Positions 18,026-42,099 of a stretch of DNA of 52,405 bases are shown in pieces (position 1 is the first letter of the stretch; each line of letters opens with the position of its first letter). Position numbers and translations under genes: made by a program. The stretch is taken from IMG/VR virus record IMGVR_UViG_3300034101_004390, positions 1-52,405 of that record, one strand, 5' to 3'. The notes under the pieces are model-generated. The model made no database searches and had not been told where the DNA came from. It saw only the letters and a list, made by a program, of their open reading frames with translations. This stretch comes from a virus. Its lineage: Duplodnaviria > Caudoviricetes.

Positions 18026-18034
18026 GTATCACTG

Positions 18035-20363: not shown

Positions 20364-21014
20364 ATGCAGACAAAACAAGTTACAGTGGGGCCGATTGCTG
20401 CAGCCGATGCTGACGGCATTTGCGCTTCGCAGACGCCAACCGCTGGCGCTCTTTTGATCAACGGCGCGCTCGCTTCGGGCGGCTCCGTCACTCTCGATGT
20501 TCAGCGCCGAGTGCTTATCACGGCCGCGGGCGACGAGAGCGCCACGTCGTTTACGATCACTGGCACGAACTGGCAGGGCAATTCGATCAGCGAAGTTGTC
20601 CCGGGTCCGAACGCAACGACCGCTTCGACCGTCATTAGTTTCAAGACTGTCACCTCCGTTACGATCGCCAACAACGCTGTTGGCGCAGTGACCGTGGGCA
20701 CGAATGGCGTGGCTGACTCGCCGTGGGTCCGCTTTGATGACTGGGCGCCGAACTACATTTCGGTCAATTGCTCGACTGACGGCACGGTGAACTACAGCGT
20801 GCAGACGTCGCTCGACGACCCGAACAACATCGCAAGCCCGGTTCCGGCCGGGCAGATGACGTGGCTCGATGCTCTGGATGCAAACTTGGTATCCGAGAGC
20901 GCCGATAAGAGCGGCGGCATCCAATATGCTCCGACTTTTGCGCGTGTAGTGCTGAATAGCGGTACGGGTTCCGTTCGCGGAGTGTTCCTGCAATCGAGCA
21001 ACGTGCCGAAGTAA
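20364..21014 (+). CDS. Virion structural protein (beta-rich)
   Basis: T/A/G/S/V-rich; FTITGT...SEVV.GPNA.T motif; structural module. Confidence 0.7.
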   Translation: MQTKQVTVGPIAAADADGICASQTPTAGALLINGALASGGSVTLDVQRRVLITAAGDESATSFTITGTNWQGNSISEVVPGPNATTASTVISFKTVTSVTIANNAVGAVTVGTNGVADSPWVRFDDWAPNYISVNCSTDGTVNYSVQTSLDDPNNIASPVPAGQMTWLDALDANLVSESADKSGGIQYAPTFARVVLNSGTGSVRGVFLQSSNVPK

Positions 21015-21035
21015 AACGCCCGACGGGGGAATTTT

Positions 21036-21725
21036 ATGGCGACAAGCGGAACGTACGCGTACAACCCGTCGCTGGGCGAGATTACGCTTTACGCCTTCAA
21101 TCTGTGCGGTATTCGCAATACCGCGCTGCTGCAAGAGCACATGGAGTCGGCACGCATGTCGGCAAACATGCTGCTTGGCCGTTGGAGCAGTCAGGGCGTC
21201 AATCTCTGGTGCGTGGATCTTGAGACGATTCCGCTTGTTCAGGGCACTGCTACGTACTCTGTCCCGTCAAATACGGTTGTTATGCTTGATGCATACATCG
21301 TGCAAAACACGGGTGGCGCGGCTATTAATAGGCTGATACTGCCTATTTCTCGCTCAGAATATGCGTCATATCCGAACCCGGAGCAGCAGGGATTCCCGAC
21401 AACGTACTGGTTTGACCGCCTGCTGTCGCCAACCGTAACCCTTTGGCCGGTGCCAGATGGTGGCGAAACGTCGCTCAATTACTATCGCGTCCGGCAAATT
21501 CAAGACAGCAATTTTACGAACGGCCAGCAGGTTGAGATCCCGTATTACTTCATGGAGGCCTTTGCTTTTGGCCTTGCGCAGCGCCTTGCGATGATCTGGG
21601 CGCCGGATAAAGTGGCCATGCTCAAGCCGCTGGCAGATGAGTCGTATGACATTGCCTCTCGCCAGAACGTCGAGACTGCGCAGCAATACATTTCGCCCAT
21701 GGTATCGAGTTACTTTAGGCCGTAA
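21036..21725 (+). CDS. Head-tail adaptor-like protein
   Basis: MATSGTY N-terminus; W..QGVNLW, ISRSEY..YPN, GxPxxYWFDR, LWPVPD motifs. Confidence 0.75.
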   Translation: MATSGTYAYNPSLGEITLYAFNLCGIRNTALLQEHMESARMSANMLLGRWSSQGVNLWCVDLETIPLVQGTATYSVPSNTVVMLDAYIVQNTGGAAINRLILPISRSEYASYPNPEQQGFPTTYWFDRLLSPTVTLWPVPDGGETSLNYYRVRQIQDSNFTNGQQVEIPYYFMEAFAFGLAQRLAMIWAPDKVAMLKPLADESYDIASRQNVETAQQYISPMVSSYFRP

Positions 21726-21728
21726 TGC

Positions 21729-22463
21729 ATGTCCTACGCATCGCAGTCCGGCCGGGCCAAAACTAGCGCAACAAACCCGCAGGCACATGCGATATGTGAT
21801 CGGTGTGGTTTTCGCTATAACCATGCCGAACTGAAATGGCAGTACGACTGGCGCGGCGCCATGATCCAGAACATCAGGATTCTGGTTTGCGACACCTGCC
21901 TCGACACCCCGCAAGAGCAGTTGCGCTCGATCGTGGTTCCCGCGGACCCGACCCCGATCGTTAACGCTCGCGTGCAGGACTTTGAGACTGCCGAAACGAA
22001 CTATCAGACTGTATCTGCGCCACCCACGATCGACCCGCAAACCGGCATTCCAATTCCGGGGAATACGACGCTAGTCACGCAGAACGGCCAGCAACTTACT
22101 ACGCAGCCGTACGGGCCGCCTGTGGGCCTTACTCAACCGGCAGTGATGCCGCTGAAGGGTACGACGCAGTACGCTGTAAAACTGCCTGCGTTGTCCGTAT
22201 CGGCCAACGGAACTACCGTCATTACGGTGACGTGCTCGTCGCCTCACGGTTTAACGACAAACGATCAAATTTCTGTTGAGGGCGTGACGAGTGTCAAAGC
22301 GTGTGGTTTCTATAGCGTCACAGTGACGACAGCCACAGCATTTACGTATGAGACGGCACAGGTTATTCCTGCGGGCGCCCTTTTAACGCCCACAACCCGT
22401 ATTATCACGGCATCGGTTGGTCTGCCCTACGGGTACACCCAGATACCTCAAGTTGGAACTTAG
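21729..22463 (+). CDS. Zn-ribbon protein (CDRCG...VCxxCxD) with C-terminal beta domain (HGL..ND.I.V)
   Basis: Four-Cys motif; C-terminal segment resembles beta-barrel repeats also inserted in 28916..30997. Confidence 0.75.
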   Translation: MSYASQSGRAKTSATNPQAHAICDRCGFRYNHAELKWQYDWRGAMIQNIRILVCDTCLDTPQEQLRSIVVPADPTPIVNARVQDFETAETNYQTVSAPPTIDPQTGIPIPGNTTLVTQNGQQLTTQPYGPPVGLTQPAVMPLKGTTQYAVKLPALSVSANGTTVITVTCSSPHGLTTNDQISVEGVTSVKACGFYSVTVTTATAFTYETAQVIPAGALLTPTTRIITASVGLPYGYTQIPQVGT

Positions 22464-22466
22464 GCG

Positions 22467-25400
22467 ATGGCAAATACAACGATCCCAAATCTTCCGGCAG
22501 CAACCAGTCTCGACGGCACCGAGCAACTTGAGGTCGTCCAAAATGGCACGTCTAAGCGTGTCACGGCCGATCAGATTGCTGCTCTTGCTGAGAACACGCA
22601 GGGTACTGTTACCCAAATCGATACTGGCGGCGCCCTTGTTGGCGGCCCGATTACGACGACTGGCACGATTAGCCTGCCACCAGATGCCGTTACGAACGTG
22701 TATCTGGCCGAAATGCCGGCTAACACGCTCAAGGCAAACATTACTGGGTTGACGGCGAACCCGACTGACGTGACCCCTAGTCAGTTGCTGGATACCTTCA
22801 GTTCGGCTGAAGGCGCGATGCTGTATCGCGGAGTTTCTGGTTGGCAGGAGTTGGCTCCCGGCTCCAACAACCAGTACATGTACACGAACGGCAACAATCC
22901 GCAGTGGGTTACGTTGGCAATCAGCCCGGGCGATATTGGCCCTAGCGGCGTCACCCCGGGATCATACGGAAGCCCGTCAGAAACCATCACTTTTACAGTT
23001 ATTTCTGGCGGCCTGCTGACTACAGCGGCTGCTGTTCCGATTGCGATTTCCACATCTCAGATTACCGGTCTCGGCACGATGGCGACGCAAAACGCCAACA
23101 ACGTTGCCATTACTGGTGGAAACATCAATGGAACGATCATTGGTGCATCGACCCCGGCACAGGCCTATTTCACGACCATTTCTGGCGGTGCGTGGCAGGG
23201 AACCACGATTGGAATTGCGTATGGCGGCACTGGAGCCACGACCGCGGCAGGCGCTCGCACCAATCTCGGGCTTGGCACGATGGCAACGCAAGATGCCAAC
23301 AACGTTGCCATCACTGGCGGCTCAATCAATAACACTTCGATTGGCGCTACCACCCCGCAGGGCGGCTCGTTTACGACGCTCAGCGCAAGCAGCACCGCAT
23401 CGTTTGGAACGATTACGTCTGGCACATGGAACGGTAGTGCTATTGGCGTTGCATATGGTGGCACTGGCGCGACTGACGCGGCCACCGCGCGCACGAATTT
23501 AGGCGCTGCGGCCAGTGGTGCAAACTCAGATATCACTAGCCTTACTGGTTTGACGACGCCTCTTTCGGCCCCGCAAGGCGGCACCGGGTTCTCGTCATAC
23601 ACAACCGGTGACTTGGTTTACGCCCCAACATCAAACTCGCTTGGCAGATTGAACGACGTTGCAACTGGCAACGCTTTGCTGTCTGGCGGCGTTGGTGTCG
23701 CGCCTTTCTACGGCAAAGTCGGCCTGACTACGCACGTCACCGGCACTCTGCCTGTTGATAACGGCGGTACGGGCGCTACGTCTTTAACGGGTTACGTTAA
23801 AGGAAACGGCACTAGCGCATTCACTGCGGTAACAACGATTCCAAATTCTGATCTGCAAAACAGCAGCGTCACGATTGGTTCGACGACAGTTGCCCTAGGT
23901 GCATCAACCTCAACGCTGGCTGGGCTGACGACCGTTACGTTGACGCAAGATCCGTCTACGGCGCTTGAAGCATCAACCAAGCAGTACGTCGACAATCAGG
24001 TCGCTTCTGTTTCCAACCTGACGTATCACACGCAGGTTACGTCGGCGACGACTGCGAACCTCAACGCCACGTACAGCAACGGTGTTGGCGGTGTCGGGGC
24101 GACGCTTACAAATGCCGGCGCGTTTGCTCAGTTCCAAATCGACTCTTACACCCCGGGTTCACTCGCTCGCGTTCTTGTCAAAAACCAGACGAACGCATAC
24201 GAGAACGGAATTTATGAGGTAACGACTCAGGGTGACGGCGTCTCTGTACTGTGGGTCCTGACTCGTACTTCAGACTTCAACACCGTTGGATCTGGTCCGA
24301 CCAGAATTCAAACCGGCGCCTCTGTGTTTGTTCAGTTTGGAACGAACAATGGCTCCACTAGTTGGGTGATGACGTCGGTGCCGCCGATTACGGTTGGCTC
24401 GACAAACCTCAACTGGACCCAGACATCTTCGTCGGGAAACATCCTTGTTGACGCGCCTCTCATAAAGACGGGCAACACGCTCAGCCTTGGCACCGTCAAT
24501 GTGCCGTTTGGTGGAACAGGAATTACGTCCTACACAATCGGCGATCTTTTGTATGCCGATAGTTCAACGTCGCTCGCAAAACTGGCAGACGTTGCGACTG
24601 GAAATGTGCTGCGCTCTGGCGGAGTTGGCGTTGCCCCGGCTTGGGGTAAGGTTGATCTAACCACTGATGTTAGCGGCACTCTTCCTGTCGCTAACGGAGG
24701 CTCAGGAACATCAACGGCCTTTACGCAAGGCTCGGTGTTGTTTGCCGGCGCTTCAGGCGTTTACTCGCAAAACAATTCCAAGTTCTTTTGGAATAACACT
24801 GATTTCAGGCTTGGATTAAATACGGCATCTCCGACGACCGTATTGACCATTCTTTCTCCGACCCAAACTGCGCTGCCGCCCGGCGTGCTGCCATCGGGAA
24901 CGGATATTCATATTGTTGGCGCCAACAATGCGGAAACCCGCATTACGCAAGACTCATTTGGTACTGGCAATTACCCCGTCTATACCGGTCGAGCCGCTCG
25001 CGGGACTGCCGCATCGCCGACAGCGCTTCAGTCTGGCGACATCCTCACTCAGTACACTGGTCGCGGATATGGTGCTACAGGCTACAACAGCGCCTCGACT
25101 GGCGTATTTGAGTTCATCGCCGCTGAGAATTTTTCAGATACCGCTCAAGGCACGTATGCCTCTGTGCGCCTTACGGCAACTGGCGGCGCATCGCCTGCTG
25201 AGGTTTTCCGTATTGGGCCTATTGGTCAGGTCGGCGTAGGCGGATCTAACTACGGCACCGCAAACCAACTGTTGACGTCAAACGGAATTAACGCCGCTCC
25301 GTCATGGCAGTCCGGTATTTCGGTCACGACGATAACTGCGTCTAGCACCGTTACGTTGACGGCACTGACGGCGTCTAAAGTTGTCTTCACTGACGCGTCA

Positions 25401-26089: not shown

Positions 26090-26473
26090 ATGGCTACTAC
26101 AGCACAATACGCATCAACCGTCCAAAATGCCTCGGCGCAAGTTACGACGGCTAACACCAACCGAAACGGCACCGGCACGATTGTTAGCGTCATCACCGGA
26201 GCCACAAACGGCACCCGTGTAGACGATATTTACATCGTCGCAACTGGAACCACTACGGCAGGCGTTGTTCGTCTTTTTATTAGCGACGGCAGTAACATCC
26301 GCTTGTGGCAGGAAATTCTAGTATCGGCCGTGACGCCTAGCACCACGGTGCAGGTATGGTCATACACGCTCCTCAATCAGGCTCTGCTGCTTGAGAACGG
26401 CTGGTCGTTGCAGGCGTCAACCAACAATGCCGAAACGTTCAACATTCTCGTAACTCGCGCGGGTGACTTCTAA
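26090..26473 (+). CDS. Small beta-sandwich tail-fibre tip adaptor
   Basis: Between fibre and Gly-rich protein; GAGGT RBS; beta-strand pattern resembling 30997..31425. Confidence 0.65.
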   Translation: MATTAQYASTVQNASAQVTTANTNRNGTGTIVSVITGATNGTRVDDIYIVATGTTTAGVVRLFISDGSNIRLWQEILVSAVTPSTTVQVWSYTLLNQALLLENGWSLQASTNNAETFNILVTRAGDF

Positions 26474-27519
26474 TGAATCCGGGCACATTTCAAGGGCCGG
26501 GTTCTGGCGTACCCGCAGGAACTATTAGTCGTTATATTCAAACGCCGATTATCGCAACGTCGCAGACGATTGCTGTCCCGCTCGGTACGCAGCGCATTGA
26601 AGCGTTGTTATGCGGCGGTGGCGGCGGCGGAAGCGGTTACGTTGGTGGCGGTGGTGGATTTGGCGGTGCCGCAATCATAGAAATTCCTGTTACGGGTTCG
26701 CCATTGCAGATAGTTGTCGGCGCTGGCGGCGCTGGTAGTACGTCGGCAACACCCACTGTCAGCGGAAATGGTGCAAATGGATCACCAACCTACGTAGTGT
26801 CGGCTGGTACTCGCTACGCTGAAGTCGGTGGCGGTGGCGGTGGTGCATCGCAAGGAAGTAATTATTCAGGTGGCGCTGGCCGCAGCGGCGGGGGCGGTGG
26901 TGGTGGTAGTGGTAGTTTCGGCGGTGGTATTGGAGGTAATGCGCCAATAGGTAATGTGTTGTGGTCTATATATCCGCAACAGCACGGTCAAATATATAAC
27001 ACTGCTTTCACTTCTATTTTCAATGCTTTCGCCGGTAACTATTCGTATTACCCGGGAGGAACCGGGGGGGCGGGCGGCACGTATGGCAGCACTGCTGGTG
27101 GCGCTGCATGGCCGCTTCCGGCGGTCGCAGGTTCGCTTGGTGGCGGTGGCGGTGGGGCGACTGGCAGAAATGATAGCAATCAACCCACAACCGATTTGGC
27201 CGCTTACGGCGGCGGTGGCGGCGGCGGCAACGGTTATGCTGGTAGTGATGGGAATTGGGGTGGCGGCGGTGGTAGAGAAGCCGTTGGCGGCTCTTTAGCG
27301 TCGGTTTCTATCTGGGGATTGACGGGGTTTGCCGCAGGAGCCCGGTTAGGGAACCTTGGAGGTAGCGGTGGCGGTGGCTTACTCGGCGCTGGGGCAAACA
27401 ACACAGGCCCCGGTGGGTCTGCTGGCGGCAACGGCGGTGGCGGCGGTGGCTCTGCTTATACCAGCGGTAATGGCGGCAACGGCGGCAACGGTTTTGCCAT
27501 CATTCGCTTTTATCTTTGA
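26473..27519 (+). CDS. Glycine-rich putative receptor-binding protein (polyglycine-II bundle)
   Basis: Many GGGGGG runs separated by variable loops; C-terminal GNGFAIIRFY strand. Confidence 0.75.
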   Translation: MNPGTFQGPGSGVPAGTISRYIQTPIIATSQTIAVPLGTQRIEALLCGGGGGGSGYVGGGGGFGGAAIIEIPVTGSPLQIVVGAGGAGSTSATPTVSGNGANGSPTYVVSAGTRYAEVGGGGGGASQGSNYSGGAGRSGGGGGGGSGSFGGGIGGNAPIGNVLWSIYPQQHGQIYNTAFTSIFNAFAGNYSYYPGGTGGAGGTYGSTAGGAAWPLPAVAGSLGGGGGGATGRNDSNQPTTDLAAYGGGGGGGNGYAGSDGNWGGGGGREAVGGSLASVSIWGLTGFAAGARLGNLGGSGGGGLLGAGANNTGPGGSAGGNGGGGGGSAYTSGNGGNGGNGFAIIRFYL

Positions 27520-28915: not shown

Positions 28916-30997
28916 ATGCCTCACGCCTCAGTCAAACTCAAACCGGGTATTGACCAGAACGAAACGCCAGCCCTTAACGAGGCTGGTATTTCGTTTTCTA
29001 ACCTCATCCGTTTTATCTACGACCGCGACGGTCTGGGCCTTATCCAGAAGTTGGGCGGTTGGACTAAGTTCTATCCCAACACGATTGAATCAATTGTTCG
29101 TGCCTTGTGGGCATGGGAAGACACTAACTCCAATTCGCACTTGGCTGTCGGCACGCAGAACAACGCTATCACTGGCGTTGCAAACCTTAGCGTCATTACA
29201 AACGGCCTACGCGACAACATTACGCCGCAGACGCTAACAGACAACCTTGCTTTGCAGTTCTCGACGACCGCGGGTAGCCCCGTTGTCACCGTTACCGACA
29301 CCACAAACACCGATATCTCTGACTTTGACTCTGTTTACATACAGGTTCAGGTTGCTATCGGCGGACTAATCCTGTTTGGCAACTATCGAACTTTTGCGAT
29401 CAGCAGCACGACGTACAACATTATTGCGACAGATTTATTGGGCGCACCGCAGGCCGCAGCCACTTCATCAACAACCGAAGTGCTGCCTGAGATTGACGTT
29501 ACGTCAGGATCTGCAATCGTCAGTATTACGTTGCCCAATCACGGTTACGTCGTAGGCGATACGTTCCCAATTTTGGCATCCACGGTCGTTGGTGGCGCCA
29601 CGTTTTTTGGTAACTACATTGTTCAAGATGTTCTAAACGCGAATGAGTTTACGATTATCTCGACGGTTCTTCCTACATCGTCGACGACTGGATTCGTTAA
29701 CGGAAACGATGTTCGAGTGACCTACAACTTCGGCGCAGCGCCGGGCGCCGTAGGTTACGGATATGGCGGCAACGGATATGGCTTAGGCGGATATGGCAAT
29801 GGCGTCTCGCCTGCCTCTCTGTCCGGCAGCGAAATAACCGCATTCGACTGGACCCTTGATAACTGGGGTGAAGTTCTCATCGCCTGCCCGCGTAACGACA
29901 CGCTGTATCAGCCAATTTACGAATGGAATCCAACATCAGGCATTCCTATCGCAAGCGTTATCCCTGAAGCCCCGATGGTCAACGATGGCGTGTTTGTGGC
30001 TATGCCTCAGCGCCAGATCATCGCGTGGGGATCTACGTTCAGCGGCGTGCAAGATCCGTTGTTAATTCGCTGGTGCGACGTCAACAACTACAATTCTTGG
30101 ATCGGCACAGTCACTAATCAGGCCGGTTCGTATCGCATCCCGAAAGGCTCTAAGATTGTCGGCTGCTTGCAGGGTCCGCAGCAGGCGCTGGTATGGACCG
30201 ACCTCGGCGTCTGGGCCATGCAGTACGTGGGTCCGCCGTTTGTGTACTCGTTCAACGAGATCGGCACGGGCTGCGGATTGATCGCCAAGAAAGCCGCGGC
30301 ATCAATCTCGGGTTCGGTGTATTGGATGGGCCCCTCGCAGTTCTTCAAACTGTCGGGAGAGGGCGTGGCTCCGGTCGCGTGTCCGATTTGGGACGTGATC
30401 TTCCAAGATCTCGATCAAACCCAACTTGACAAGATTCGTGTCGCCGTGAACTCGCGATTCGGCGAAATTACGTGGTACTACCCGACCGAAAGCAATGGCG
30501 GCGAAGTCAACGCCTACGCGAAGTACAACGTGTATCTGCAACAGTGGGACTACGGCACGCTGGCTCGATCGGCATGGATTGACCAATCAGTGCTGGGTCC
30601 GCCGATTGGCGCAGACCCGGATTCGCTGTACATCTATCAGCATGAGACCTCGACCGACGCTGACGGTCAGCCGTTGCTGGCCAGTTTCCAGACCGGTTAC
30701 TTCACGATGTCGAATGCCGACGTGAAGATGTTTGTCGACCAAGTGTGGCCCGATATGAAGTGGGGCTACTTTGGCGGCACGCAGAATGCGACGGTTAACC
30801 TGACGTTCTTCACGACGGATTACCCGGGCCAGACGCCCCAGCAGTTTGGCCCATATCCGCTTACGCAGAGCACCACGTTTATATCGCCTCGATTCCGCGG
30901 GCGCCTCGTATCGATTAAGTTGGACAGCACTGATGTCGGTAGTTTCTGGCGTATCGGTAATATCCGATATCGAACCAAAGAAGACGGTAAATTCTGA
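28916..30997 (+). CDS. Tail nozzle/stabilisation protein (P22 gp10/T7 gp12-like)
   Basis: KLKPGI N-terminus, QKLGGW, WTLDNWGE, LIRWCD, VWTD, YWMG, RxRGR C-terminal motifs. Confidence 0.75.
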   Translation: MPHASVKLKPGIDQNETPALNEAGISFSNLIRFIYDRDGLGLIQKLGGWTKFYPNTIESIVRALWAWEDTNSNSHLAVGTQNNAITGVANLSVITNGLRDNITPQTLTDNLALQFSTTAGSPVVTVTDTTNTDISDFDSVYIQVQVAIGGLILFGNYRTFAISSTTYNIIATDLLGAPQAAATSSTTEVLPEIDVTSGSAIVSITLPNHGYVVGDTFPILASTVVGGATFFGNYIVQDVLNANEFTIISTVLPTSSTTGFVNGNDVRVTYNFGAAPGAVGYGYGGNGYGLGGYGNGVSPASLSGSEITAFDWTLDNWGEVLIACPRNDTLYQPIYEWNPTSGIPIASVIPEAPMVNDGVFVAMPQRQIIAWGSTFSGVQDPLLIRWCDVNNYNSWIGTVTNQAGSYRIPKGSKIVGCLQGPQQALVWTDLGVWAMQYVGPPFVYSFNEIGTGCGLIAKKAAASISGSVYWMGPSQFFKLSGEGVAPVACPIWDVIFQDLDQTQLDKIRVAVNSRFGEITWYYPTESNGGEVNAYAKYNVYLQQWDYGTLARSAWIDQSVLGPPIGADPDSLYIYQHETSTDADGQPLLASFQTGYFTMSNADVKMFVDQVWPDMKWGYFGGTQNATVNLTFFTTDYPGQTPQQFGPYPLTQSTTFISPRFRGRLVSIKLDSTDVGSFWRIGNIRYRTKEDGKF

Positions 30998-32693: not shown

Positions 32694-33347
32694 ATGCCGC
32701 TGCAAAAAGGAAAGTCTCAGGAAACCATCAGCAGCAACATCAGCGAGATGGTTCATGCCGGTCACCCGCAGAAGCAGGCGATTGCCGCAGCACTGCAGAC
32801 GGCTCGCGAGTCTGCCAAGGGCGGCTTGCGCATGCCTAAGCCCAAAATGCCAAGCCTCGGCAAGCCGATGAAGTTGCACACCGGCCCGATCCACAGCGCC
32901 GTGGCTGGTCGCACCGATCACCTTCCTATGCACGTTCCGTCGGGGTCATACGTGATCCCGGCCGACATCATTTCAGCCATGGGCGAAGGCAACACCATGG
33001 CTGGCTTCAAGCAGATGAAGCGCATCTTTGGCGGCACTCCGTATGGCGGTAAAAAGCAGCCGTACAACGTCGCAGGCGGCCCTTACGGCATGTCGAGTGA
33101 TATGCCTTATGGTCAAGGCGCTGGCCCGTATGGCGGTGAGTTGCCGGGCAAGGCCGAGGGCGGCGAAACTGATTCGGTGCCGATTGTGGCTGCCGGCGGT
33201 GAATACGTCCTATCGCCCGAAGAAGTTCGTATGGTTGGAGAAGGAGATTTAGAAGTCGGACACAAAGTCCTTGATGAATTCGTAAAGCGATTCCGTAAAG
33301 AAACTATCAAAACGTTACAGAAACTACCCGGACCAAAGAAGGATTAA
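32694..33347 (+). CDS. Small internal-virion-module protein: MPLxKGKS...QAIAAAL helix plus two D-x-[LV]-P...G[ES]YV modules (candidate GG-site processing factor)
   Basis: GRTDHLPMHVPSGSYVIPADII and ETDSVPIVAAGGEYVLSPEEV, preceded by SAKGG and KAEGG respectively. Confidence 0.7.
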   Translation: MPLQKGKSQETISSNISEMVHAGHPQKQAIAAALQTARESAKGGLRMPKPKMPSLGKPMKLHTGPIHSAVAGRTDHLPMHVPSGSYVIPADIISAMGEGNTMAGFKQMKRIFGGTPYGGKKQPYNVAGGPYGMSSDMPYGQGAGPYGGELPGKAEGGETDSVPIVAAGGEYVLSPEEVRMVGEGDLEVGHKVLDEFVKRFRKETIKTLQKLPGPKKD

Positions 33348-33349: not shown

Positions 33350-33841
33350 ATGGCTGACGATATCAAGATCAGAGTTGCGACCGCCGAAGACCTCGACGAG
33401 ATTATGAAAATCGCGTTGGCGGCATGTGAAGAGAACGGATTCCTGAACCCAAACCCGCAGAAACTGGCCGCTGAGATTTGGCCGGCTCTGCATCAAGACC
33501 ACGGTATTTGTGGCGTTATCGGCAAACCGGGCGGCCCAATTGAGGGCGTCGTCCTGCTGCGCATCGGTAGCATGTGGTATTCCGACGCTCAGGTTGTCGA
33601 AGAGAAGGCTATTTTCATTCACCCAGAATTTCGTAGCGCCAAAGGCGGACGCGCTAAGCGCCTGTGCGAATTCAGCAAGAAGGTTGCTGATACTCTTGGA
33701 ATTCCGCTGATTATCGGCGTACTATCCAATAGCCGCACAGAAGCCAAAGTTCGCATGTACGAGCGCCAGTTTGGCAAACCAAGCGGTGCTTTCTTCCTCT
33801 ACGGCGCAAAAACCGGAGAGTTCCAGAGAATGGAGCAGTAA
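33350..33841 (+). CDS. GNAT-fold protein preceding ejection proteins
   Basis: IRVATAEDL, WYSD...EKAIFIHPEFRS, YERQ motifs; conserved position before internal virion genes in podoviruses. Confidence 0.75.
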   Translation: MADDIKIRVATAEDLDEIMKIALAACEENGFLNPNPQKLAAEIWPALHQDHGICGVIGKPGGPIEGVVLLRIGSMWYSDAQVVEEKAIFIHPEFRSAKGGRAKRLCEFSKKVADTLGIPLIIGVLSNSRTEAKVRMYERQFGKPSGAFFLYGAKTGEFQRMEQ

Positions 33842-36800
33842 ATGGGCGGCAAAACAAGTAAGAGTACCCAAACAGTATCCATTCCACCGGAGGTACTGGC
33901 GCGGTACAACGCAGTTAACGCGCGTGCTGAGGACGTCGCCAGCCGGCCGTTTCAGCCGTACTCTTACAACCCCGCCGACTTTGTCGCCCAACTGACTCCG
34001 ACCCAGTTGGCGGGTATTCAAAACGTCAACTACGCCGCCGGACAGGCTCAGCCGTACTTCGACGAAGCCACCAATCAGTTGATGGGCGCCCAAATGGCCG
34101 CCACGCCGTATTACGCTCAAGCAGAGCAGGATGTCGGTTACGGCCAGCAGTACGGCATGGCCGGCACTCAGGCTGCCCAGAATCTAATGTACGGCGGTAT
34201 CAATGCCGCTTACCCGCTGAACTATCAGTCTTTGCAGACGATGGGCGCTGCTCAAGATGTCGGCGCGCAGTTGGCGCGACAAGCATATGCTCAGCAGGCC
34301 CGTGCAGGCGCAACTGCAGATCCGTTCAATTACGCAGCATCTGGTGCATATCAGCAGGGTTATGGGCAGGGACAGGAACTGCTCGGTCGCGGAGTTGAAC
34401 AGTTTTATGGCGCATTAGGCGCTGCTCAGCCACTGCAATACGAAGCAGCCGGCGGCATTCGAGATGCGCTGGGTGTGGGTCGTCAGTTAGGCGCTCAGTC
34501 GTATGCAACGACGCAGCGAGCCGGCGAAACGACCATGCCGATCAACTATCAGTCGCTGGCAGGTTTGCAGCAGGCTCTTGCAGCCGCGCAGCCTTATACG
34601 CAAGAAGCGACCCAGCGATACGGTGTTGGTTTAGAAAAAGCCGATCCTCTGCAGCAGTATGCTTTGCAGACGTTAGGTCGAGCCGGTATGACCGGCGAAT
34701 CGATCTCTGGCGAAGCACTAGGAAGCCTTGCTCGCGCTGGATACGCCGCACAGCCTTTGCAGCAGTTGGCTCAGGGCATTTACGGCGAAGCCTATCAAGG
34801 CGCGCAGCCCTACAACGTTGCCGCTCTCCAGCAGTATTACGGCGGCCTCGGCGCCGCTGGCCCAATAAGCCAGCAAGCCCTACAAAACGTCGCTGCCGCT
34901 CAGGCTGGCGCGCAACCGTATCAGCAGTATGCAACTGAACTCGGTCTTGCTGCGGCTCGCCCGGTAGCGCCGGGTCAATTGACTGGATTCGAGATCGGTC
35001 AGTATATGAGCCCGTACATGTCGACCGTGGTCGGCCAGACGCAGGCTCTGCTCAATCAGCAAGCGCAGCAGGCTCAGGCCGAACAGACTGGTAATGCGAT
35101 TCGTGCGGGCGCCTTCGGTGGCGACCGTGCTCGTATCGCTGCCGCAAACCTTCAGCAACAACAGCAGTTGGCGCAGGGTAAAGTCCTTGGAGATCTTCTG
35201 CAGTCTGGTTACGGTCAGGCGCTGCAAACCGCTCAGCAACAGCAGCAGATCAATCTTTCTGCCGAGCAAGCCAACCGCGCCGCTCAACAGGCCGCTGCAG
35301 GTCAGTTGCTTGGCGTTGGTCAGACCGGATTCGGTCAGGGCATTTCTGCCGCTCAACAGCAGGCCGCGTTGGCTCAGCAGTTATTCGGCCAGCAAATGGC
35401 CGCCGGTCAAGGCATCGCAGGCCTCGGTCAGCAAACGTTTGCTCAAGGTCTATCGGCTGGTCAAGCGCAGCAGGCTCTCGCGCAACAGTTGTTCGGCCAA
35501 GGCGCCACGACCGCTCAGCAGCAGGCTGCGATCGCTCAGTCGCTGTTTGGTCAGGGCGCAACGTCGGCAGCCCAACAGGCCGCTCTCGCTCAACAGATGT
35601 TCGGCCAGCAGGCTACGACCGCTCAGGGTCTTGCCGCCCTTGGTCAGCAGTTGTACTCGCAGGGCACCGGCACCGCACAGGCTCAGGCTGCAATCGGCCA
35701 GCAGATGTTTGCGCAGCAGATGGCGCAGGCACAGCAAGAGGCCGCTCTCAGTCAGATGCTATACGGGCAGGGCCTTGGCGCTTCACAAGCGCAAGCCGCT
35801 CTTGCTCAACAACAATTTGCTCAGCAACAAGGTGTTGGGCAAAACCTGCTCGCCGCTGGCCAGCAAGGCTTTCAGCAGGGCTTAGGTCTCGGTCAAGCCC
35901 AGCAGGGCCTTGGTCAGCAGTTATTTAGCCAAAACATGCAGCAGGCTCAGCAGCAGGCTGCACTGAGTCAGTTGTTGTTTGGCCAAGGCACGACCGCCGC
36001 ACAACAGCAAGCCGCAATCGGCCAGCAGTTGTTTGGTCAGGGCCTCAGCGCCTCGCAGCAGCAAGCCGCACTGGGTCAGCAGGGTTTTGCTCAGCAGTTA
36101 GCCGCCGCTCAGGCTCGTCAGCAGTTGGGTCAAGGCCTATACGGTATGGGCACAGGTACGGCCCAGCAGTTGGCAGCCCTTGGCACAGGCGCTCAGGGCG
36201 CTGCTCTGCAGGGTGCTCAGGCTCAGTTGGCTGCGGGTCAAGCCCAGCAGCAGACCGCTCAGGCTGGCCTACAGGCGCTTTACAACCAGTTCCTGCAGCA
36301 GCAGGCGTATCCGTTCCAAGTCGCGCAGTTCCTCGGAAACATCGCGATGGGTACGGGCGCGCTTTCTGGATCAACCACGACGACGGTACAACCGGGCAGC
36401 ATTTTCCAAACGTCTGACATCCGCGCAAAAGAGAACGTACGCGAGGTTGGTAAGACGCTCGATGGGCAGCCGATTTATGCTTACAACTACAAGGGCGACC
36501 CGAAAACCCAGATGGGTCTTATCGCTCAGGAAGTTGAAGAGCGACATCCTGATGCAGTAGCAAAAATTGGCGGCTTGAAGGCCGTTAACTACGAGCGCGC
36601 CACTCGCGATGCGGCTCGTCGCGGTGATGCTATCGACGCGGAATTTTCGCCGATTAGCGAAGGCGGCTCCGTAACACGCGAGCGCGCCGGTCTCGGCTTT
36701 GCCGACGGCGGAATGCCTGATACGAATGATGCAGCAAATCGCGCTGAAGAAGAGATGAAGCAGCGTCAACAAGAGCAGGCTGCTCAAAATGAACAGCGTG

Positions 36801-39772
36801 CAGCGCAGGCGGCAGTACAGACTGCAAAGCAACAGGCTCCCGCCGCCAAACAGGCACCTGCTCCGCAAGTTGATCTCAAGCCGAATTTGAGCGTCAAACC
36901 GGAAGTTGGTGGTGCTGCTCTTGCAAAAATAGATATTCCAACAGCGCCACCGTCAATTCCTCAGTTGGCTGTTGCTGGTCCTGCTCCCGCTGCGGATCAA
37001 GGATCAAAAGACGCTCAGGCGATTGCCGCGTTGATGATGGCTTTTTCAGATCGCCGTATGAAAGAAGACGTGAAGCACATCGGTTTCACGCATGACGGTC
37101 AGAAAATTTACAGTTATCGCATTAAAGGTCAGCCGCACACTCAGATTGGCCTGATGGCTGACGAGGTGCAAGAGCACAAGCCTGAGGCGGTCGGCTCGAT
37201 GAACGGCCTGAAAATGGTCGATTACGATCGCGCCACTGAAGATGCAGCGCGTAAGTCGCGCGGCGGTTATGCCGATGGCGGTAGCCCGGGTCTTGCAAGC
37301 CCGACTGACATGGCTGCGTTACTTGCGGCGCAAGCGCAGATGTTTGGGCCGTTCGGCGACTACGCTCGTACGTTGACTGGCAATCCGGGTGCGCCGGGAT
37401 ATGTCCCGGGCGCCAATTTACCTATTAGTAATTTAGTAACAGCCGGTGCTTTGCCAACTCAGCGTTCTACGGCGGATGACGTTGAGTCTGCTGTGAATAT
37501 CGGTAAAGGCATTAAAGAGTTACGCACGCCGAAGGAAGCGCCAAAACCGGCGGAATCAAAGACGGAAACAGAAGTTCCGGGTGCCGTAGCAAGCGGAGAG
37601 CCTGTTTCAGAAACGGAATATTCAATTGAACCTGCCAACCGATATCGTGGCGGCCTTGCATATGCTGATGGCGGGCAAGTCATTCCGTATGCCGCTCAAA
37701 CTGGGCTTAATATTCCGGTAGAAATGAAGACGCCGGAGTTGATGAAGCCGGGTTCATCACCGAAACAGCGCAGCACTATGGATGATGTTGCGCAAGCCTT
37801 AGGAATCGCATCAGATGTTAAGAATTTGATGCCGAAGGCTTATGGCGGATCGATTGGCCGCAACGGTTATGACGCCGGCGGTAATCCAACGTTTGCAGAG
37901 CGCTTTATTCCGGGTATTCAAACGCAAGAAGGCGTTGACGAAAATCGTCGCGCAATGATGGATTTCATTGAGAAGCGGGTTCTTAAAAATCCGTACCTAA
38001 ATACGGCCGAAGCCGCGCGTTTGCGTGATGAGCGTTTGCGCATGCAGCCGACGTCTGCTGCTCCGGCAACTACCGGAACGCCTCCTGCGCCTCCCGCAGC
38101 ACCTGCTACGACGCGTCCGCAGGCTCCTCGCCCAGTCGCCGATCTGACTGCCGCAAACAAGCCGCTGCCGTCTTCCATGTTTGCCAACTTGCCTGAATCT
38201 TTGGAACCGGGCTTGGCTACTGTGGTTCAAAGTCCTGCCGTTGGCGCTGGGCCGATGATTACGCCACCGGCCCCAGCCGCTGCTCCAACTGGTGGATTGG
38301 TTCCGCCTTCTGCCGCTGCGCCTGTTACGACTCCTGCTGCGGCTACGGCGCCGGCTGCTCCGACTGGTTTGCAGCCGCCTGCGGCACCTGCTGCAACGAC
38401 TCCGGCAACGCAGAAAAAGCCCGGCATATTGGACTGGCTGCGTAAGGAAGAGAATTACATTCCGCTTCTTCGTGGCGCTGCTGCCGCTGTGGCTGCTCCG
38501 ACGCAATACACGTTACCTGCGCTACTTGTTGGCGCTGGCGCTTACGGTAAAGCCAAGGGAGATGTTCTGCAGCAGTTGGCGGACATCGAGGCTATTAAGG
38601 CCGGAACAGAAGCAACACGGGCCGATATCAAGTTGTCTCTGGCAAATCTCCCAAGGCAGGCAATCGTTACGGATGCTCAAGGCAGAACGTTAGGCGTTCG
38701 AGTCTTCGGTCCGAACAACGAGATCATAATGATCCCGCCGGGTGAGTTCTTCCGCCGTCAAAAAGCGGGAGAGAAATTCAATTTTGCTTTTGCAACCGAG
38801 AGCGGACTCGGGCAAGTTCAGCCGGGCGCGCCAGCAACGCCTGCCGGAGCGCCAACGGCGACCCCAGCAGCGCCGACTGCGGCTCCTGCAACGGGCCAAC
38901 CCCAAAAGCCGGTTTATCAGCAAATCCCTCAGGATATGATGCCCGGCGTAATTCAAAGGGCTGACGCTGTTCAGGAAACGGGAATTCCGGCTCTTTCGGC
39001 TCAGAAAGAAAACAATCCGTTTACAGGGCAGGCATCACTGGCTCAGGCTGAGCGTGAAAACCGCTTCACCCGCAATACGCTTGCGAAGGCTTTCGTTGAA
39101 TTGCCCGCAAGTCAAAGCGGTGTGTTTTCTGCCGAAGTTGCCAATCCGCTGTTTAACTATGTAAGCAGCGCGCTGACGTTCTTTGGCGTATCGCCAGAGT
39201 TCTTAAAGCAATATGTGCGCGACCCGAAAGACATTGCCAATCAAGAAGTGGTGAACAAGATCACCACTCAACTTGCCCAGCAGATGCAGACCGAAGGCGG
39301 TGGCGTGGCTCTTGGCAAGTTTATGGCTTTGCTTGAGTCAATTCCGCGCTTATACAACACGAAGACAGGTCAAGCAGATCTTGTTGCAAGCATGTTTGTA
39401 AACTCGCAGCGCAACCTTGACGTAGATCGATTCAACAACTTGTATCGAAATGCTCTGCAAGATGCTGGCGGTTTGAACTCTGCACAGTCTGGATACGCTG
39501 GCCGCGGATTAGAAGCCGAATTTTCTCAGCGCCAAGATCCGTACTATCCAATTGAAAAATCAATTATTTCGGACATGTTCTTAAGTAAGGTAAAAATCAC
39601 GTCAAACGGACAACAAAAGGAAGTGCCTTTGCTGAAGTTCGTTATCGACTCCGGCGGAGAAATTCCGCCCGCGTTGAAAAAAGTGATTGTTGATAAATAC
39701 TCCAAGAAAAACCCAGACGGGTCGATCGCATACGACGCATCGAACGTTCTTCGTTACTTCGGGGGTGGTTGA
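33842..39772 (+). CDS. Giant DNA-ejection/internal virion protein with 18-aa repeats and two peptidase S74 (intramolecular chaperone) domains
   Basis: MGGK N-terminus; YMSPY...AGAFGGDR core; SDIRAKENV...GLIAQEVE...VNY and SDRRMKEDV...GLMADEVQ...VDY. Confidence 0.85.
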   Translation: MGGKTSKSTQTVSIPPEVLARYNAVNARAEDVASRPFQPYSYNPADFVAQLTPTQLAGIQNVNYAAGQAQPYFDEATNQLMGAQMAATPYYAQAEQDVGYGQQYGMAGTQAAQNLMYGGINAAYPLNYQSLQTMGAAQDVGAQLARQAYAQQARAGATADPFNYAASGAYQQGYGQGQELLGRGVEQFYGALGAAQPLQYEAAGGIRDALGVGRQLGAQSYATTQRAGETTMPINYQSLAGLQQALAAAQPYTQEATQRYGVGLEKADPLQQYALQTLGRAGMTGESISGEALGSLARAGYAAQPLQQLAQGIYGEAYQGAQPYNVAALQQYYGGLGAAGPISQQALQNVAAAQAGAQPYQQYATELGLAAARPVAPGQLTGFEIGQYMSPYMSTVVGQTQALLNQQAQQAQAEQTGNAIRAGAFGGDRARIAAANLQQQQQLAQGKVLGDLLQSGYGQALQTAQQQQQINLSAEQANRAAQQAAAGQLLGVGQTGFGQGISAAQQQAALAQQLFGQQMAAGQGIAGLGQQTFAQGLSAGQAQQALAQQLFGQGATTAQQQAAIAQSLFGQGATSAAQQAALAQQMFGQQATTAQGLAALGQQLYSQGTGTAQAQAAIGQQMFAQQMAQAQQEAALSQMLYGQGLGASQAQAALAQQQFAQQQGVGQNLLAAGQQGFQQGLGLGQAQQGLGQQLFSQNMQQAQQQAALSQLLFGQGTTAAQQQAAIGQQLFGQGLSASQQQAALGQQGFAQQLAAAQARQQLGQGLYGMGTGTAQQLAALGTGAQGAALQGAQAQLAAGQAQQQTAQAGLQALYNQFLQQQAYPFQVAQFLGNIAMGTGALSGSTTTTVQPGSIFQTSDIRAKENVREVGKTLDGQPIYAYNYKGDPKTQMGLIAQEVEERHPDAVAKIGGLKAVNYERATRDAARRGDAIDAEFSPISEGGSVTRERAGLGFADGGMPDTNDAANRAEEEMKQRQQEQAAQNEQRAAQAAVQTAKQQAPAAKQAPAPQVDLKPNLSVKPEVGGAALAKIDIPTAPPSIPQLAVAGPAPAADQGSKDAQAIAALMMAFSDRRMKEDVKHIGFTHDGQKIYSYRIKGQPHTQIGLMADEVQEHKPEAVGSMNGLKMVDYDRATEDAARKSRGGYADGGSPGLASPTDMAALLAAQAQMFGPFGDYARTLTGNPGAPGYVPGANLPISNLVTAGALPTQRSTADDVESAVNIGKGIKELRTPKEAPKPAESKTETEVPGAVASGEPVSETEYSIEPANRYRGGLAYADGGQVIPYAAQTGLNIPVEMKTPELMKPGSSPKQRSTMDDVAQALGIASDVKNLMPKAYGGSIGRNGYDAGGNPTFAERFIPGIQTQEGVDENRRAMMDFIEKRVLKNPYLNTAEAARLRDERLRMQPTSAAPATTGTPPAPPAAPATTRPQAPRPVADLTAANKPLPSSMFANLPESLEPGLATVVQSPAVGAGPMITPPAPAAAPTGGLVPPSAAAPVTTPAAATAPAAPTGLQPPAAPAATTPATQKKPGILDWLRKEENYIPLLRGAAAAVAAPTQYTLPALLVGAGAYGKAKGDVLQQLADIEAIKAGTEATRADIKLSLANLPRQAIVTDAQGRTLGVRVFGPNNEIIMIPPGEFFRRQKAGEKFNFAFATESGLGQVQPGAPATPAGAPTATPAAPTAAPATGQPQKPVYQQIPQDMMPGVIQRADAVQETGIPALSAQKENNPFTGQASLAQAERENRFTRNTLAKAFVELPASQSGVFSAEVANPLFNYVSSALTFFGVSPEFLKQYVRDPKDIANQEVVNKITTQLAQQMQTEGGGVALGKFMALLESIPRLYNTKTGQADLVASMFVNSQRNLDVDRFNNLYRNALQDAGGLNSAQSGYAGRGLEAEFSQRQDPYYPIEKSIISDMFLSKVKITSNGQQKEVPLLKFVIDSGGEIPPALKKVIVDKYSKKNPDGSIAYDASNVLRYFGGG
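34046..34963 (+). repeat. 17 degenerate 18-aa (54-nt) repeats, arm 1 (AQP[YL]xxxA...)
   Basis: Counted by hand in translation; register holds from AQPYFDEA to AQPYQQYA. Confidence 0.75.
35321..36184 (+). repeat. 16 tandem 18-aa (54-nt) repeats, arm 2 (QQLFGQGxxxAQQQAAL[AG])
   Basis: Aromatic residue every 18 aa without indels. Confidence 0.9.
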
Positions 39773-42099
39773 TGGCTCTTCCAGAGGACGAAACGCAATT
39801 TGAGATTGTTAGCGGCGCACCTGCAGTTTCCGGTGTTCCTGCCAACAACGCTGAGCGTGAAACATTTGAAATAGTTCCAATGGAAGCGGAGGCAAGAAAG
39901 CCTCCTCCTCAGCAGCCGACTCCAGATCGATCCGGCGTTCGCGTTGGCGCAACTCGTTTTCAGCAGGCCCGTGCTCCAGCGGCACCCAGCGAAAAAGAAC
40001 TTTCGTGGGAAGAAACCGCTCGCGGGTTTGGCAGAACAATTGTTCCAAGCACTATCGAGGCTGGCCGCGCCACATTGCAGGCATTAAATCCTGCAAACTT
40101 GGATGAAACATATGCGGGCCTAAAGCAATTAGGTGTTGGCGCCGTATCGAAAGGCCAGCGTGCCTTAGGCATTTCTCAAAATAAATCAGAAGCCGCAGAA
40201 GATGAGCGCGCCCTAAATGCATTCATCGAAGGGTATAAAAATACATACGGTTCGATGGCCGGGTTCAAACGCGCTTTAGCGGAAGACCCTGCAAGTGTAT
40301 TGCTAGATTTATCAACTTTTCTTACCGGCGGCGCAGGCGCCCTTGGAAAGGCTGGTCTTGCGTCTGAAAAAGCGGTCAGGATTGCACAACGCGCCGGAAC
40401 CGCTATAGATCCGTTGCAAACCGCTTTGAAGGTGGCAAAAGCCCCGGTCGTAGGCGTCAAAGTTCCTTTTACACAGAAGAGGATTCCCGGCGCCGCTCAG
40501 ATGTCCACGCTTGCATTTGGTTTGACGACTGGCCGGTCGCCTGAATTAATACAGCAGGCAGCGCGAACTGCAATGGAAGGAACCCCAGAGCAAAGAGATG
40601 CGTTCCTTAAATTTTCTAGCAAAAACGCTGACGACATGGAAATTGTCGACGTGGCCGCCAACGCATTGCAGAAAGCAAAGAAAGCGCAGCGAGATGCGTA
40701 TGAGAAGTCGATGGCAGCATCGAATGCCCGTGCGCCAAGCGTAGACTTTAATCCTGTGTTATCAGCAATCGATAACGAATTAAATTCTTATCAAACAGTG
40801 ACCTCAACCGGCAAAAAACTACCTAAGAACAAAGGCGCTGTAGAGTTGTTAGAAGAGATTGGTCAAGAGGCTCTTGAATATGCAACCGGGCCGGTTGGTT
40901 CTGTTGAGCGAAGTATTTTTAGTGCCGATGCTCTTAAGCAACGAATCGGCGAATTAATGAATACTTATAAGAACAACCCTCAAGCGTATCGAGCGGGCGT
41001 TGCTGCGTATAACGCTGTCAAAACCGCAATTGGCAAGTCTGACCCCGAATACATGCGAATCATGCGTGAATACGAAGATGCGCAGGAAATAATCAACGAT
41101 ATTCGCATGGGTCTCGGCGTTGGCCGCGCATCGCCTGAAACAGTTCTTAGTCGTTTAATGCCGAAGAAGAAACCGTCAACTCGAAAAATGTTGATTGAAG
41201 ATCTTGCTAAATTTGACGACCGAATCCCGCACATGATTGCGGGCGCATCTTTGCGCGAGACGGTGCCGGGCGGATTGCAGGCACTGCTTAGCGGCGTAAC
41301 TGGGTTTGCAGTCCATCCTGTTGCATTCGCTGGCCAACTGGCGGCTTCCTCGCCTAAGGTTGTTGGCCGAGGCGCATATGCCGCAGGAAGACTTGGGGCT
41401 GCTGGCCGTGCGATTACTCAGCCCGGTGTTGTGCTTCCCGCTTACTACGCCGGACGCGCGCGAGAAGAAGTGGTTAATCAAGCAGCCGCATCGCCAGAGC
41501 AAGAAGAAGTTTTTAATAAGATGCTTGGCATCGAAAGCAGCAATCGTCAATTTGATGCAAAAGGAAACACGATTCTTGGCCCAGAAGTTCAAACTGAATT
41601 CGGGCGTCATCGCGCTGTAGGTATTGGGCAGGTCATGCCATACACCGGCCCCGAGGCAGCAGAGGCTGCTGGCGTCGAGTGGAATGAAGAAAGGCTGTAC
41701 AACGATGCGGAGTACAACAAGACATTAGCCCGCGCGTACTTTGACAAACAAGTTCAAGAGTTTGGAAGCGTTGTTACCGCTGCCGCGGCATATAACGCTG
41801 GTCCTGAGCGCGTCCGACAAGCAATCAGAAAGGCTGAAGAGACGGGCCAATCGTTCATTGAGTTTTTGCCTCAAGAAACTAAAAACTACTTGCAAAAAAT
41901 ATTTGGCGAATCTGGCGGTGAATTTCGTATTGAGCGCAAGTCTGGCGGCCGCGTCGACAGCGTCGAGCGCCTTGTTAGCCAGTTGATGCTGCGCACGAAG
42001 CAGGCCAAGCGCGAGACAACGAAAGCGACGGAACCTTTACTTGACCAGCCTGACGAATCGATCGTAAAAGCCCTCGACGTGGCTCAGCAGGCGATCTAG
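39772..42099 (+). CDS. Internal virion protein with C-terminal lytic transglycosylase (SLT) domain
   Basis: IESS, AVGIGQVMP, AAYNAGP, ETKNY motifs; TGATG coupling. Confidence 0.88.
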   Translation: MALPEDETQFEIVSGAPAVSGVPANNAERETFEIVPMEAEARKPPPQQPTPDRSGVRVGATRFQQARAPAAPSEKELSWEETARGFGRTIVPSTIEAGRATLQALNPANLDETYAGLKQLGVGAVSKGQRALGISQNKSEAAEDERALNAFIEGYKNTYGSMAGFKRALAEDPASVLLDLSTFLTGGAGALGKAGLASEKAVRIAQRAGTAIDPLQTALKVAKAPVVGVKVPFTQKRIPGAAQMSTLAFGLTTGRSPELIQQAARTAMEGTPEQRDAFLKFSSKNADDMEIVDVAANALQKAKKAQRDAYEKSMAASNARAPSVDFNPVLSAIDNELNSYQTVTSTGKKLPKNKGAVELLEEIGQEALEYATGPVGSVERSIFSADALKQRIGELMNTYKNNPQAYRAGVAAYNAVKTAIGKSDPEYMRIMREYEDAQEIINDIRMGLGVGRASPETVLSRLMPKKKPSTRKMLIEDLAKFDDRIPHMIAGASLRETVPGGLQALLSGVTGFAVHPVAFAGQLAASSPKVVGRGAYAAGRLGAAGRAITQPGVVLPAYYAGRAREEVVNQAAASPEQEEVFNKMLGIESSNRQFDAKGNTILGPEVQTEFGRHRAVGIGQVMPYTGPEAAEAAGVEWNEERLYNDAEYNKTLARAYFDKQVQEFGSVVTAAAAYNAGPERVRQAIRKAEETGQSFIEFLPQETKNYLQKIFGESGGEFRIERKSGGRVDSVERLVSQLMLRTKQAKRETTKATEPLLDQPDESIVKALDVAQQAI

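Follow-up and report, generated by a model that had tools for sequence, protein, structure and literature searches.

IMG/VR virus record IMGVR_UViG_3300034101_004390 (positions 1-52,405, linear and about 90% complete, the whole of which we analysed and refer to as the window) contains a gene at 32694..33347 for a 217-residue protein built around two copies of a small module, and it raises the question of what such a protein does at the head of a block of ejection-protein genes. The preliminary description of this locus had proposed that the module recognises or cleaves xxxGG sequences, in cis in tape-measure proteins (TMPs) and in trans here. The premise of that proposal, a repeat with a likeness to TMPs, is confirmed, but the step from there to a module that reads or cuts xxxGG in trans is not supported. 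At a confidence slightly better than even, we read the protein as a docking carrier without catalytic activity that belongs to the ejection-protein set and represents a widespread family in its cargo-less form. The repeat, the architecture of the family, its conserved gene order, the fold as predicted and the homology of the hooks to TMP modules are what the analysis shows.

Phages inject enzymes with their DNA, and to our knowledge the loading of such passengers is mostly unexplained in podophages outside T7, N4 and P22. If the carrier reading is right, the constant frame of this protein is a candidate packaging or delivery signal, and a natural scaffold for placing a reporter or an enzyme in a phage particle.

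Two copies of one module in a small protein

The carrier gene has AAGGGG six bases 5' of its ATG and is present once in the record; 100% identical copies are held by two IMG/VR loci (L003 and L004). The two stretches that the preliminary description had singled out begin where it placed them, with G72 at nucleotide (nt) 32907 and K153 at nt 33150. That they are two copies of one module of ~40 residues is borne out by an hhalign comparison of family sub-alignments, residues 60-112 against 148-200, which match over 40 aligned columns (90.3%, E 1.5e-6). The Smith-Waterman score of the two module stretches is 66, compared with 20.9 +/- 4.1 for 5000 shuffles, and 0/5000 shuffles reach 66.

An AlphaFold2 model of the carrier protein, made with a 52-sequence alignment, has a mean predicted local distance difference test score (pLDDT) of 82.1 and a predicted template modelling score (pTM) of 0.59. 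Two units of one shape are predicted, each a beta-hairpin followed by two helices, and we refer to these as hook 1 and hook 2. The C-terminal domain (C-domain) folded separately gives the same secondary-structure elements as the full-length model. A three-copy complex prediction for the C-domain scored 0.00, but was run without controls and is uninformative on oligomers either way. Ahead of the modules the preliminary description had noted a helix and SAKGG, and the model agrees, with helices at residues 9-21 and 26-41 (pLDDT 92-97) and SAKGG at residues 40-44. The elements of the gene, with the evidence for each, are as follows.

32694..33347, plus strand: the whole gene, encoding the cargo-less carrier ('chassis') protein, 217 amino acids (aa) plus stop with an ATG start (list of open reading frames, ORFs)
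32694..32825, plus strand: N-terminal helical hairpin, residues 1-44, ending in SAKGG (40-44) (phrog_2423, E 5.8e-13 over residues 1-43; AlphaFold2)
32826..32882, plus strand: short basic and proline-containing linker, residues 45-63, insertion site A (inserts of relatives; pLDDT 63-75)
32883..33029, plus strand: hook module 1, residues 64-112 (AlphaFold2 strands 76-82 and 86-88, helices 90-96 and 101-112)
33030..33149, plus strand: disordered Gly/Pro/Tyr-rich linker, residues 113-152, insertion site B (pLDDT <50 for 116-144)
33150..33323, plus strand: KAEGG flank with hook module 2 (153-181) and the long C-terminal helix (186-210) (AlphaFold2; TMP profile)
33324..33344, plus strand: conserved extreme C-terminus LPGPKKD (LPxPxx tail in 356/373 family proteins)

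Hook 1 is laid out as a GPIHS..GRTD beta-hairpin, a PAD helix, a GEGN turn and a second helix; it is nearly invariant in the family and has a weak match to phrog_11341 positions 16-52. The linker that follows it varies in length in the family alignments. Hook 2 is predicted with strands at 161-167 and 171-173 and helices at 175-181 and 186-210, at pLDDT 92-96. The sequence just before hook 2 is KAEGG; before hook 1, VAGR stands in that place and SAKGG lies further upstream. Across the family, A.GG is found within 16 residues before module 2 in 261/320 proteins, and within 45 residues before module 1 in 273/340.

A conserved A-x-G-G next to the modules (the 261 of 320 before module 2) and an almost invariant module 1 are both in keeping with a trans-acting protease, or a binding reader, of xxxGG sites in other virion proteins, with the [FY]ADGG sites of the giant protein encoded downstream and the ORF at 19699..19992 as its targets. 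PHROGs recognised no prohead protease among the window genes, and lambda gpH is reported to be cleaved by an enzyme that is yet to be named (PMC12617516). We nevertheless regard this explanation as highly improbable. Gly-Gly proteases, C39-type double-glycine peptidases for example, need a conserved nucleophile and a general base (Cys/His, Ser/His or a metal-binding His/Glu set). The carrier protein is without Cys, and His67, His76, His80 and all of its Ser are replaced in relatives at 35-47% identity. What persists in distant relatives is R73, T74, D75, P89, A90, D91, G97, G99, N100, G169 and E170, in the motifs GRTD, PAD, G[EQ]GN and GGE[YF]. The unit of 40 residues, a hairpin plus helices, is also small for an enzyme, and the GG flank is part of the module unit, in TMPs as well, rather than a separate substrate. 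A metal site in module 1 made up of H67, D75, H76 and H80 was also considered and was ruled out because the His vary in distant relatives.

Neither family nor fold searches returned a peptidase. No Pfam family was matched at E <= 1 by the whole protein or by either module, and PHROGs gave no more than phrog_2423 and phrog_11341, neither of which has an assigned function; the MuF / SPP1 gp7 head-anchoring domain was not found with Pfam (E <= 1) or PHROGs. Searching PDB sequences with a profile turned up nothing beyond a chance ribosomal match (E 0.68), and a Foldseek comparison with the PDB gave nothing at E <= 1e-3 for either model. With VIA-align the best matches have Z 5.4, through the N-terminal hairpin only, and Z 3.9, through the long helix of the C-domain only; the hook parts are barely covered and no peptidase is among the matches. 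BFVD yielded only uncharacterised proteins of uncultured phages, and the ESM Atlas only unnamed viral clusters, the nearest named one, crAss_CARG1 (score 0.85), being at chance level. A likeness of the hairpin-helix unit to the AbrB/SpoVT looped-hinge helix, also considered, is unsupported by any Pfam match. Literature searches on the family, its motif strings, ejection and polyvalent proteins and TMP cleavage motifs found no paper on this family or motif. Having no Cys, no His or Ser retained in distant relatives, no peptidase family match and no peptidase among the fold matches just listed, the protein gives little footing to the trans-acting protease or reader proposed at the outset.

The hook module in tape-measure and ejection-type proteins

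Module 2 (52 aa) was used as a tblastn query against 50,697 phage records (E <= 10), of which 34 matched, one being a family member. Of the 33 non-family matches, 24 fall within genes annotated as TMP, and a further 3 are homologous to a gene of Caulobacter phage GB2A that bears this annotation; taken singly the E-values are weak (0.04-9), and the weight lies in the enrichment for TMPs. When the modules of 11 TMPs were compared with the family C-domain by profile-profile alignment (hhalign), the match was 96.7% with E 3.9e-10, running through module 2 into the beginning of the long helix. The preliminary description had it that a similar module follows an F-A-x-G-G motif in many siphophage TMPs, lambda gpH among them. 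These counts and profiles bear that out, the flank being aromatic-A-x-G-G, and in gpH itself FATGG is followed by YEPAGIVHRGEFVF at residues about 741-771.

A hidden Markov model (HMM) of ten non-lambda TMP modules scores 18.1 bits (residues 59-107) and 33.0 bits (157-204) on the carrier protein, with a maximum of 4.7 in 1000 shuffles, although these scores are inflated by the choice of the profile TMPs through tblastn with module 2. Lambda gpH was chosen independently of that search, and on its residues 740-777 the ten-module HMM scores 12.0 bits against a maximum of 4.5 in 1000 shuffles. The gpH module (J02459) lies outside both gpH Pfam domains. None of the other window proteins (27 scanned) scores above 0.2 bits with the TMP-module HMM.

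The unit in the ten TMP-type proteins consists of an A-x-G-G flank, G-x-G-T-x-x-D-[SE]-[VI]-P, G-E-[FYWH]-V, a helix, G-G or G-x-G, and a second helix. It often ends with another aromatic-x-x-G-G; in TMPs A-x-G-G belongs to the module unit on both sides. Against PDB sequences the TMP profile gave 11 hits, including the TMPs Douge gp16 (two modules), JBD30 gp46 (1019-1065) and lambda gpH. The TMPs of JBD30 (gp46), Douge (gp16), lambda (gpH, about 741-790), TripleJ, Thonko, Saguaro, DLP_3 and a Nitrincola phage have the same unit as the carrier hooks, and in TMPs, as in the carrier, the module often occurs twice per protein (TripleJ and Thonko hold it twice, as does Douge); such proteins leave through the tail. 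The carrier differs from TMPs in that its modules lie in a protein of 217 aa, encoded in an ejection block of podophage type, and not in a very long helical TMP; the C-terminus follows them directly, and GPIHS..GRTDHLPMHV..SGSYVIPAD, which hardly varies, is a signature peculiar to module 1.

A search with module 1 drew a different set from module 2, namely GB2A, a single Bacillus TMP, cyanophages and the F116 gp58 group. Proteins of this last group, F116 gp58 and relatives found in 37 Pseudomonas phage records, have at their N-terminus two tandem modules followed by FFADGG. Three cyanophage records are matched by module 1 at E 2e-5, in a protein encoded two genes before a giant RelA/SpoT protein. 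Single C-terminal modules are found in GB2A gp065, in the DSL-LC04 'TMP' and in a protein of Synechococcus phage MinM2, all of them beside giant or ejection-type proteins.

Some particulars of these loci may be recorded here. F116 gp58 (L134 5983..8010) is 675 aa long and probably corresponds to phrog_11341, and the next gene, gp59 (7952..), encodes a 2129-aa protein annotated as a methyltransferase. The MinM2 protein (L133 8759..) has 294 aa, with its C-terminal hook module after YAEGG; two genes downstream is the giant ORF annotated RelA/SpoT (record 15886..24297).

Judged by sequence comparison, the carrier hooks are homologous to a module that occurs in the C-terminal part of siphophage TMPs and in ejection-type proteins from other podophages. 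Since it is found in TMPs and in ejection-type proteins, the module appears to mark proteins that are in, or leave through, the tail channel. The family thus ties a short conserved TMP element to the ejection proteins of short-tailed phages, and because the element is shared, long and short tails may have a docking device in common.

For TMPs, as for the carrier hooks, the role of the module is a proposal. The authors of the JBD30 structure predict a hook of a beta-hairpin and two helices at TMP residues 1022-1066 and speculate that it is a baseplate anchor after cleavage; they liken it to the T5 pb2* hook in the opened baseplate (PMC11445458). Its predicted shape, a hairpin plus two helices, is the same as that modelled for each carrier module. 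In T5 the pb2* hook (residues 1085-1127) is reported in a crevice of the opened baseplate hub, with the proposed role of keeping the protein fastened at the tail tip once ejected (PMC10038345). The T5 hook is likewise a short element near a TMP cleavage site, and what it may share with the carrier hooks is a proposed way of working. As no sequence likeness to the module was detected, we treat the T5 parallel as one of mechanism and not of family membership.

Proximity to cleavage sites suggests a further explanation, in which the A-x-G-G flank and hook form a self-processing cassette. Its cutting, either in cis or through a protease of host or phage that recognises the flank, would take place during assembly or once ejection has occurred. 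It would set free the hairpin, cargo or hooks, and would be the same event as the cleavage of the lambda and T5 TMPs. Cargo in relatives of the carrier is bracketed by A-x-G-G (with A.GG before module 1 in the 273 of 340 proteins counted above); T5 pb2 is reported to be cut after R1127 (PMC10038345), where the next residues are AEGG, and the carrier has KAEGG before hook 2; and lambda gpH is reported to be cut in a Gly-rich stretch just upstream of the module (PMC12617516). On the other side, no nucleophile is conserved, the T5 stretch after the cut is unrecognised by either module HMM, and one mapped site is an anecdote. Gly-rich flanks may simply be hinges. The title of Zweig and Cummings 1973 speaks, moreover, of host involvement in tail-protein cleavage. 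Taken together, self-processing seems to us quite unlikely. Its broadest form, in which A-x-G-G and hook would be a portable self-processing docking cassette of siphophage TMPs and podophage ejection proteins that docks in the tail or portal channel and is then cut at its Gly-Gly flank, we hold to be very doubtful. If true, it would explain both the gpH to gpH* and the T5 pb2 cleavages and would release inserted effectors inside the host. In T5 pb2 (L135 14122..17781, minus strand) the AEGG after R1127 is followed by a stretch reported to hold a Zn-carboxypeptidase motif (PMC10038345).

A constant frame with two insertion sites

The docking-carrier reading draws support from the domain architecture of the relatives, which is carrier-like. 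A word-indexed protein search (E <= 1e-3) returned 3667 proteins close to the carrier in length and 452 that are longer, and an exhaustive profile search found 6102 cluster representatives (50% identity) at E <= 1e-3, of which 2008 also pass <= 1e-10 and 856 pass <= 1e-30. To count architectures, the window protein was mapped onto all 188 returned relatives of at least 300 aa. An insert of >60 residues is present at site A, after the hairpin, in 126/188, with the ends otherwise kept (1-44 and about 60-217). At site B, between the hooks, 31/188 have an insert there alone (23+2+6), and 1/188 has inserts at both sites. The other long relatives have a different N-terminus (26/188), an N-terminal extension only (2) or lack module 2 (2). 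A C-terminal extension past LPGPKKD was the class of 0/188 long relatives.

Inserts were named with Pfam in a random 92 of the 188. ART-PolyVal was found in 11, InPase in 3, GP88 in 3, and NUDIX, a methyltransferase and GNAT in 1 each; one relative (P0170) bears ART-PolyVal plus GNAT. The consensus of alignment A3 has the cargo of relatives bracketed by A-x-G-G on both sides. The N-terminal hairpin is retained as residues 1-44 in cargo-bearing relatives, and the frame is also retained in distant relatives (35-47% identity), including prophages of Rhizobium, Bosea-like and Acidisoma genomes, some of which are without the hairpin and some 874-968 aa long.

Two smaller observations concern the same elements. 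A conserved site-A insert of ~45 residues is present in 6/25 near-length relatives (P0019, P0042, P0096, P0103, P0110 and P0112); it is Lys/Arg/His-rich with GG motifs on both sides, and could be an unnamed small cargo or an extension (alignment A1, columns about 65-125). The hairpin alone (phrog_2423) is encoded by ORFs of 58 and 59 aa in head modules, in MW202867.1 (L093 6001..6183) and BCSR129 (L092 5001..5177). The stand-alone ORF lies directly after the coat gene in the P22-like phage of MW202867.1, and after a minor capsid protein and a NUDIX gene in BCSR129.

From these alignments the carrier protein is a cargo-less member of a large family that is unnamed in Pfam or PHROGs, and the design of that family is a constant frame of hairpin and double hook with two defined slots for variable enzymes. 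As the frame elsewhere carries enzymes, we regard the window protein as its empty form. The constant order would be N-terminal hairpin, hook 1, flexible linker, hook 2, long helix and LPGPKKD tail, into which relatives appear to place effector enzymes, either behind the hairpin or in the stretch separating the hooks. If TMPs are a guide, the protein may be held in the portal or tail channel region of the particle by its hooks and C-terminal helix, and the same elements might keep it attached to the opened tail once ejection has taken place. An insert in the frame would then be packaged and delivered with the DNA.

Polyvalent and MuF-anchored effectors offer a precedent for such a design. The ART-PolyVal and InPase domains were defined as parts of polyvalent proteins, for which packaging and injection along with the phage DNA are predicted (PMC5512222). 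Like the family described here, these effectors are reported to combine a constant virion-associated part with variable enzymes, and to be encoded among late or virion genes (PMC5512222). The constant part of the present family is unlike theirs in being neither MuF nor any Pfam family, and cargo is inserted at two internal sites instead of being appended. Polyvalent proteins unite at least two effector-type domains in a single chain; the carrier itself, having no enzymatic domain and no cargo, is not polyvalent.

Several points weigh against the docking-carrier reading. About 72/92 scanned inserts are without a Pfam name, so that effector cargo is demonstrated for a minority only. In the reported structures of the Douge, JBD30 and lambda tails only the last 33-42 TMP residues are modelled (PMC13033339, PMC11445458, PMC10721106, PMC12617516), and the module falls in the unmodelled regions, beside TMP cleavage sites. 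The 11 PDB hits of the TMP profile do not include T5 pb2, which neither module HMM matches; because the hook that was observed, that of T5, shows no sequence likeness to the module, an anchor role for the module goes back to the speculation of the JBD30 authors. The inflation of the HMM scores on the carrier belongs here too, and the near-invariance of module 1 over 45 residues would equally suit an active site. Finally, the presence of the carrier in the virion, which gene order and the domains of relatives suggest, is an inference, as are the docking function of the hooks, their docking partner and delivery to the host.

Gene neighbourhood and the ejection-protein block

Synteny was examined in 80 IMG/VR loci, with each count restricted to loci that have room for the gene in question. 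The neighbours of the carrier gene in the window are listed below.

28916..30997, plus strand: 693-aa virion structural protein, upstream (phrog_3287, E 5.4e-61)
33350..33841, plus strand: GNAT acetyltransferase gene (phrog_1249, E 3.3e-9; weak Pfam GNAT match)
33842..39772, plus strand: 1976-aa Gln-rich internal or ejection protein (PF13884 at residues 858-906 and about 1069-1117; phrog_6121, phrog_4287)
39769..42099, plus strand: 776-aa SLT lytic transglycosylase-domain protein (PF01464, E 9.1e-11, residues 613-693)

A homologue of the 693-aa hub-like protein is upstream of the carrier gene in 65/65 loci, and one such homologue (L001, MW202675.1) is annotated 'phage stabilization protein'. 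Downstream, a GNAT gene lies within 600 nt in 68/68 loci, a homologue of the giant S74 protein is present in 48/48, and the SLT protein is detectable in 19/28. The PHROG matches of the giant protein are named virion structural protein and DNA ejection protein. With the GNAT, giant and SLT genes downstream, the carrier gene thus heads the ejection-protein block, as the preliminary description had it. This position, before large ejection proteins and after tail hub genes, and the size of the carrier are similar to those of the small ejection proteins of P22-like and T7-like podophages, such as P22 gp7 and T7 gp14; no link of the carrier to the gp7 or gp14 families was found through PHROGs or Pfam.

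The close coupling to the GNAT gene, with gaps mostly of 3-45 nt in the 68 loci, raises the possibility that the carrier protein is an assembly factor, a chaperone or adaptor that folds or loads the giant protein or the GNAT and is not ejected, or not even packaged. Its small size would fit, and so would the occurrence of the hairpin as a stand-alone ORF in head modules. We consider this unlikely. Relatives hold enzymes of the injected polyvalent type in the same frame, which would be odd for a factor left behind, and the hooks are common to TMPs and ejection-type proteins, which leave the particle. Nor does the GNAT itself help, as it is unlike any insert in the 373 family proteins: a BLAST comparison with these gave no likeness at E <= 1e-3, so that no fusion links the window GNAT to the frame, and the GNAT inserts of relatives are therefore different genes.

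The SLT-bearing and giant ejection proteins beside the carrier gene would also be natural companions of an envelope-acting ejectosome part, in which the hooks, once ejected, attach to membrane, peptidoglycan or the end of the DNA, and the protein contributes to a trans-envelope conduit. The C-terminal helix is basic and amphipathic, and TMPs that share the module are reported to form a conduit (PMC12617516, PMC10038345). However, the carrier protein has no transmembrane stretch and matched no known peptidoglycan- or DNA-binding family, and the hydrophobic parts of TMPs that form the channel do not include the module. Variable enzymatic inserts also suit a carrier better than a conduit subunit, and an envelope role is in our view very unlikely.

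The giant protein bears on the trans-protease explanation considered above, in that its three [FY]ADGG motifs could provide substrates. Against the missing maturation enzyme that the preliminary description had wanted the carrier to supply, this neighbour has two self-cleaving Peptidase_S74 domains of its own, a type of intramolecular chaperone; and the architecture of the carrier's relatives is again that of a carrier. The S74 SD.R.KE motifs of the giant protein start at residues 858 and 1069, and [FY]ADGG is found at 953, 1143 and 1274. Self-cleavage would yield three pieces, and two S74 domains in an ejection-type protein are unusual.

Other structural genes in the window are those for the large terminase (3895..5529), the portal (5748..8087), the major head protein (18770..19681) and virion and tail proteins. 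Right after the portal gene is an ORF of 1527 aa (8084..12667, plus strand) with ART-PolyVal at residues 72-208 (E 8.8e-15) and a weak GP88 match. Its domains suggest a polyvalent protein of the window phage that is probably injected; the hook module is absent from it. The substrate ORF of the preliminary description (19699..19992, plus strand), directly after the major head protein gene, encodes a very basic, GG-rich protein of 97 aa without a family match. A 348-aa protein (26473..27519, plus strand) has 39 GG (112 per 1000 residues), a glycine run and a weak 'tail fiber assembly' PHROG match.

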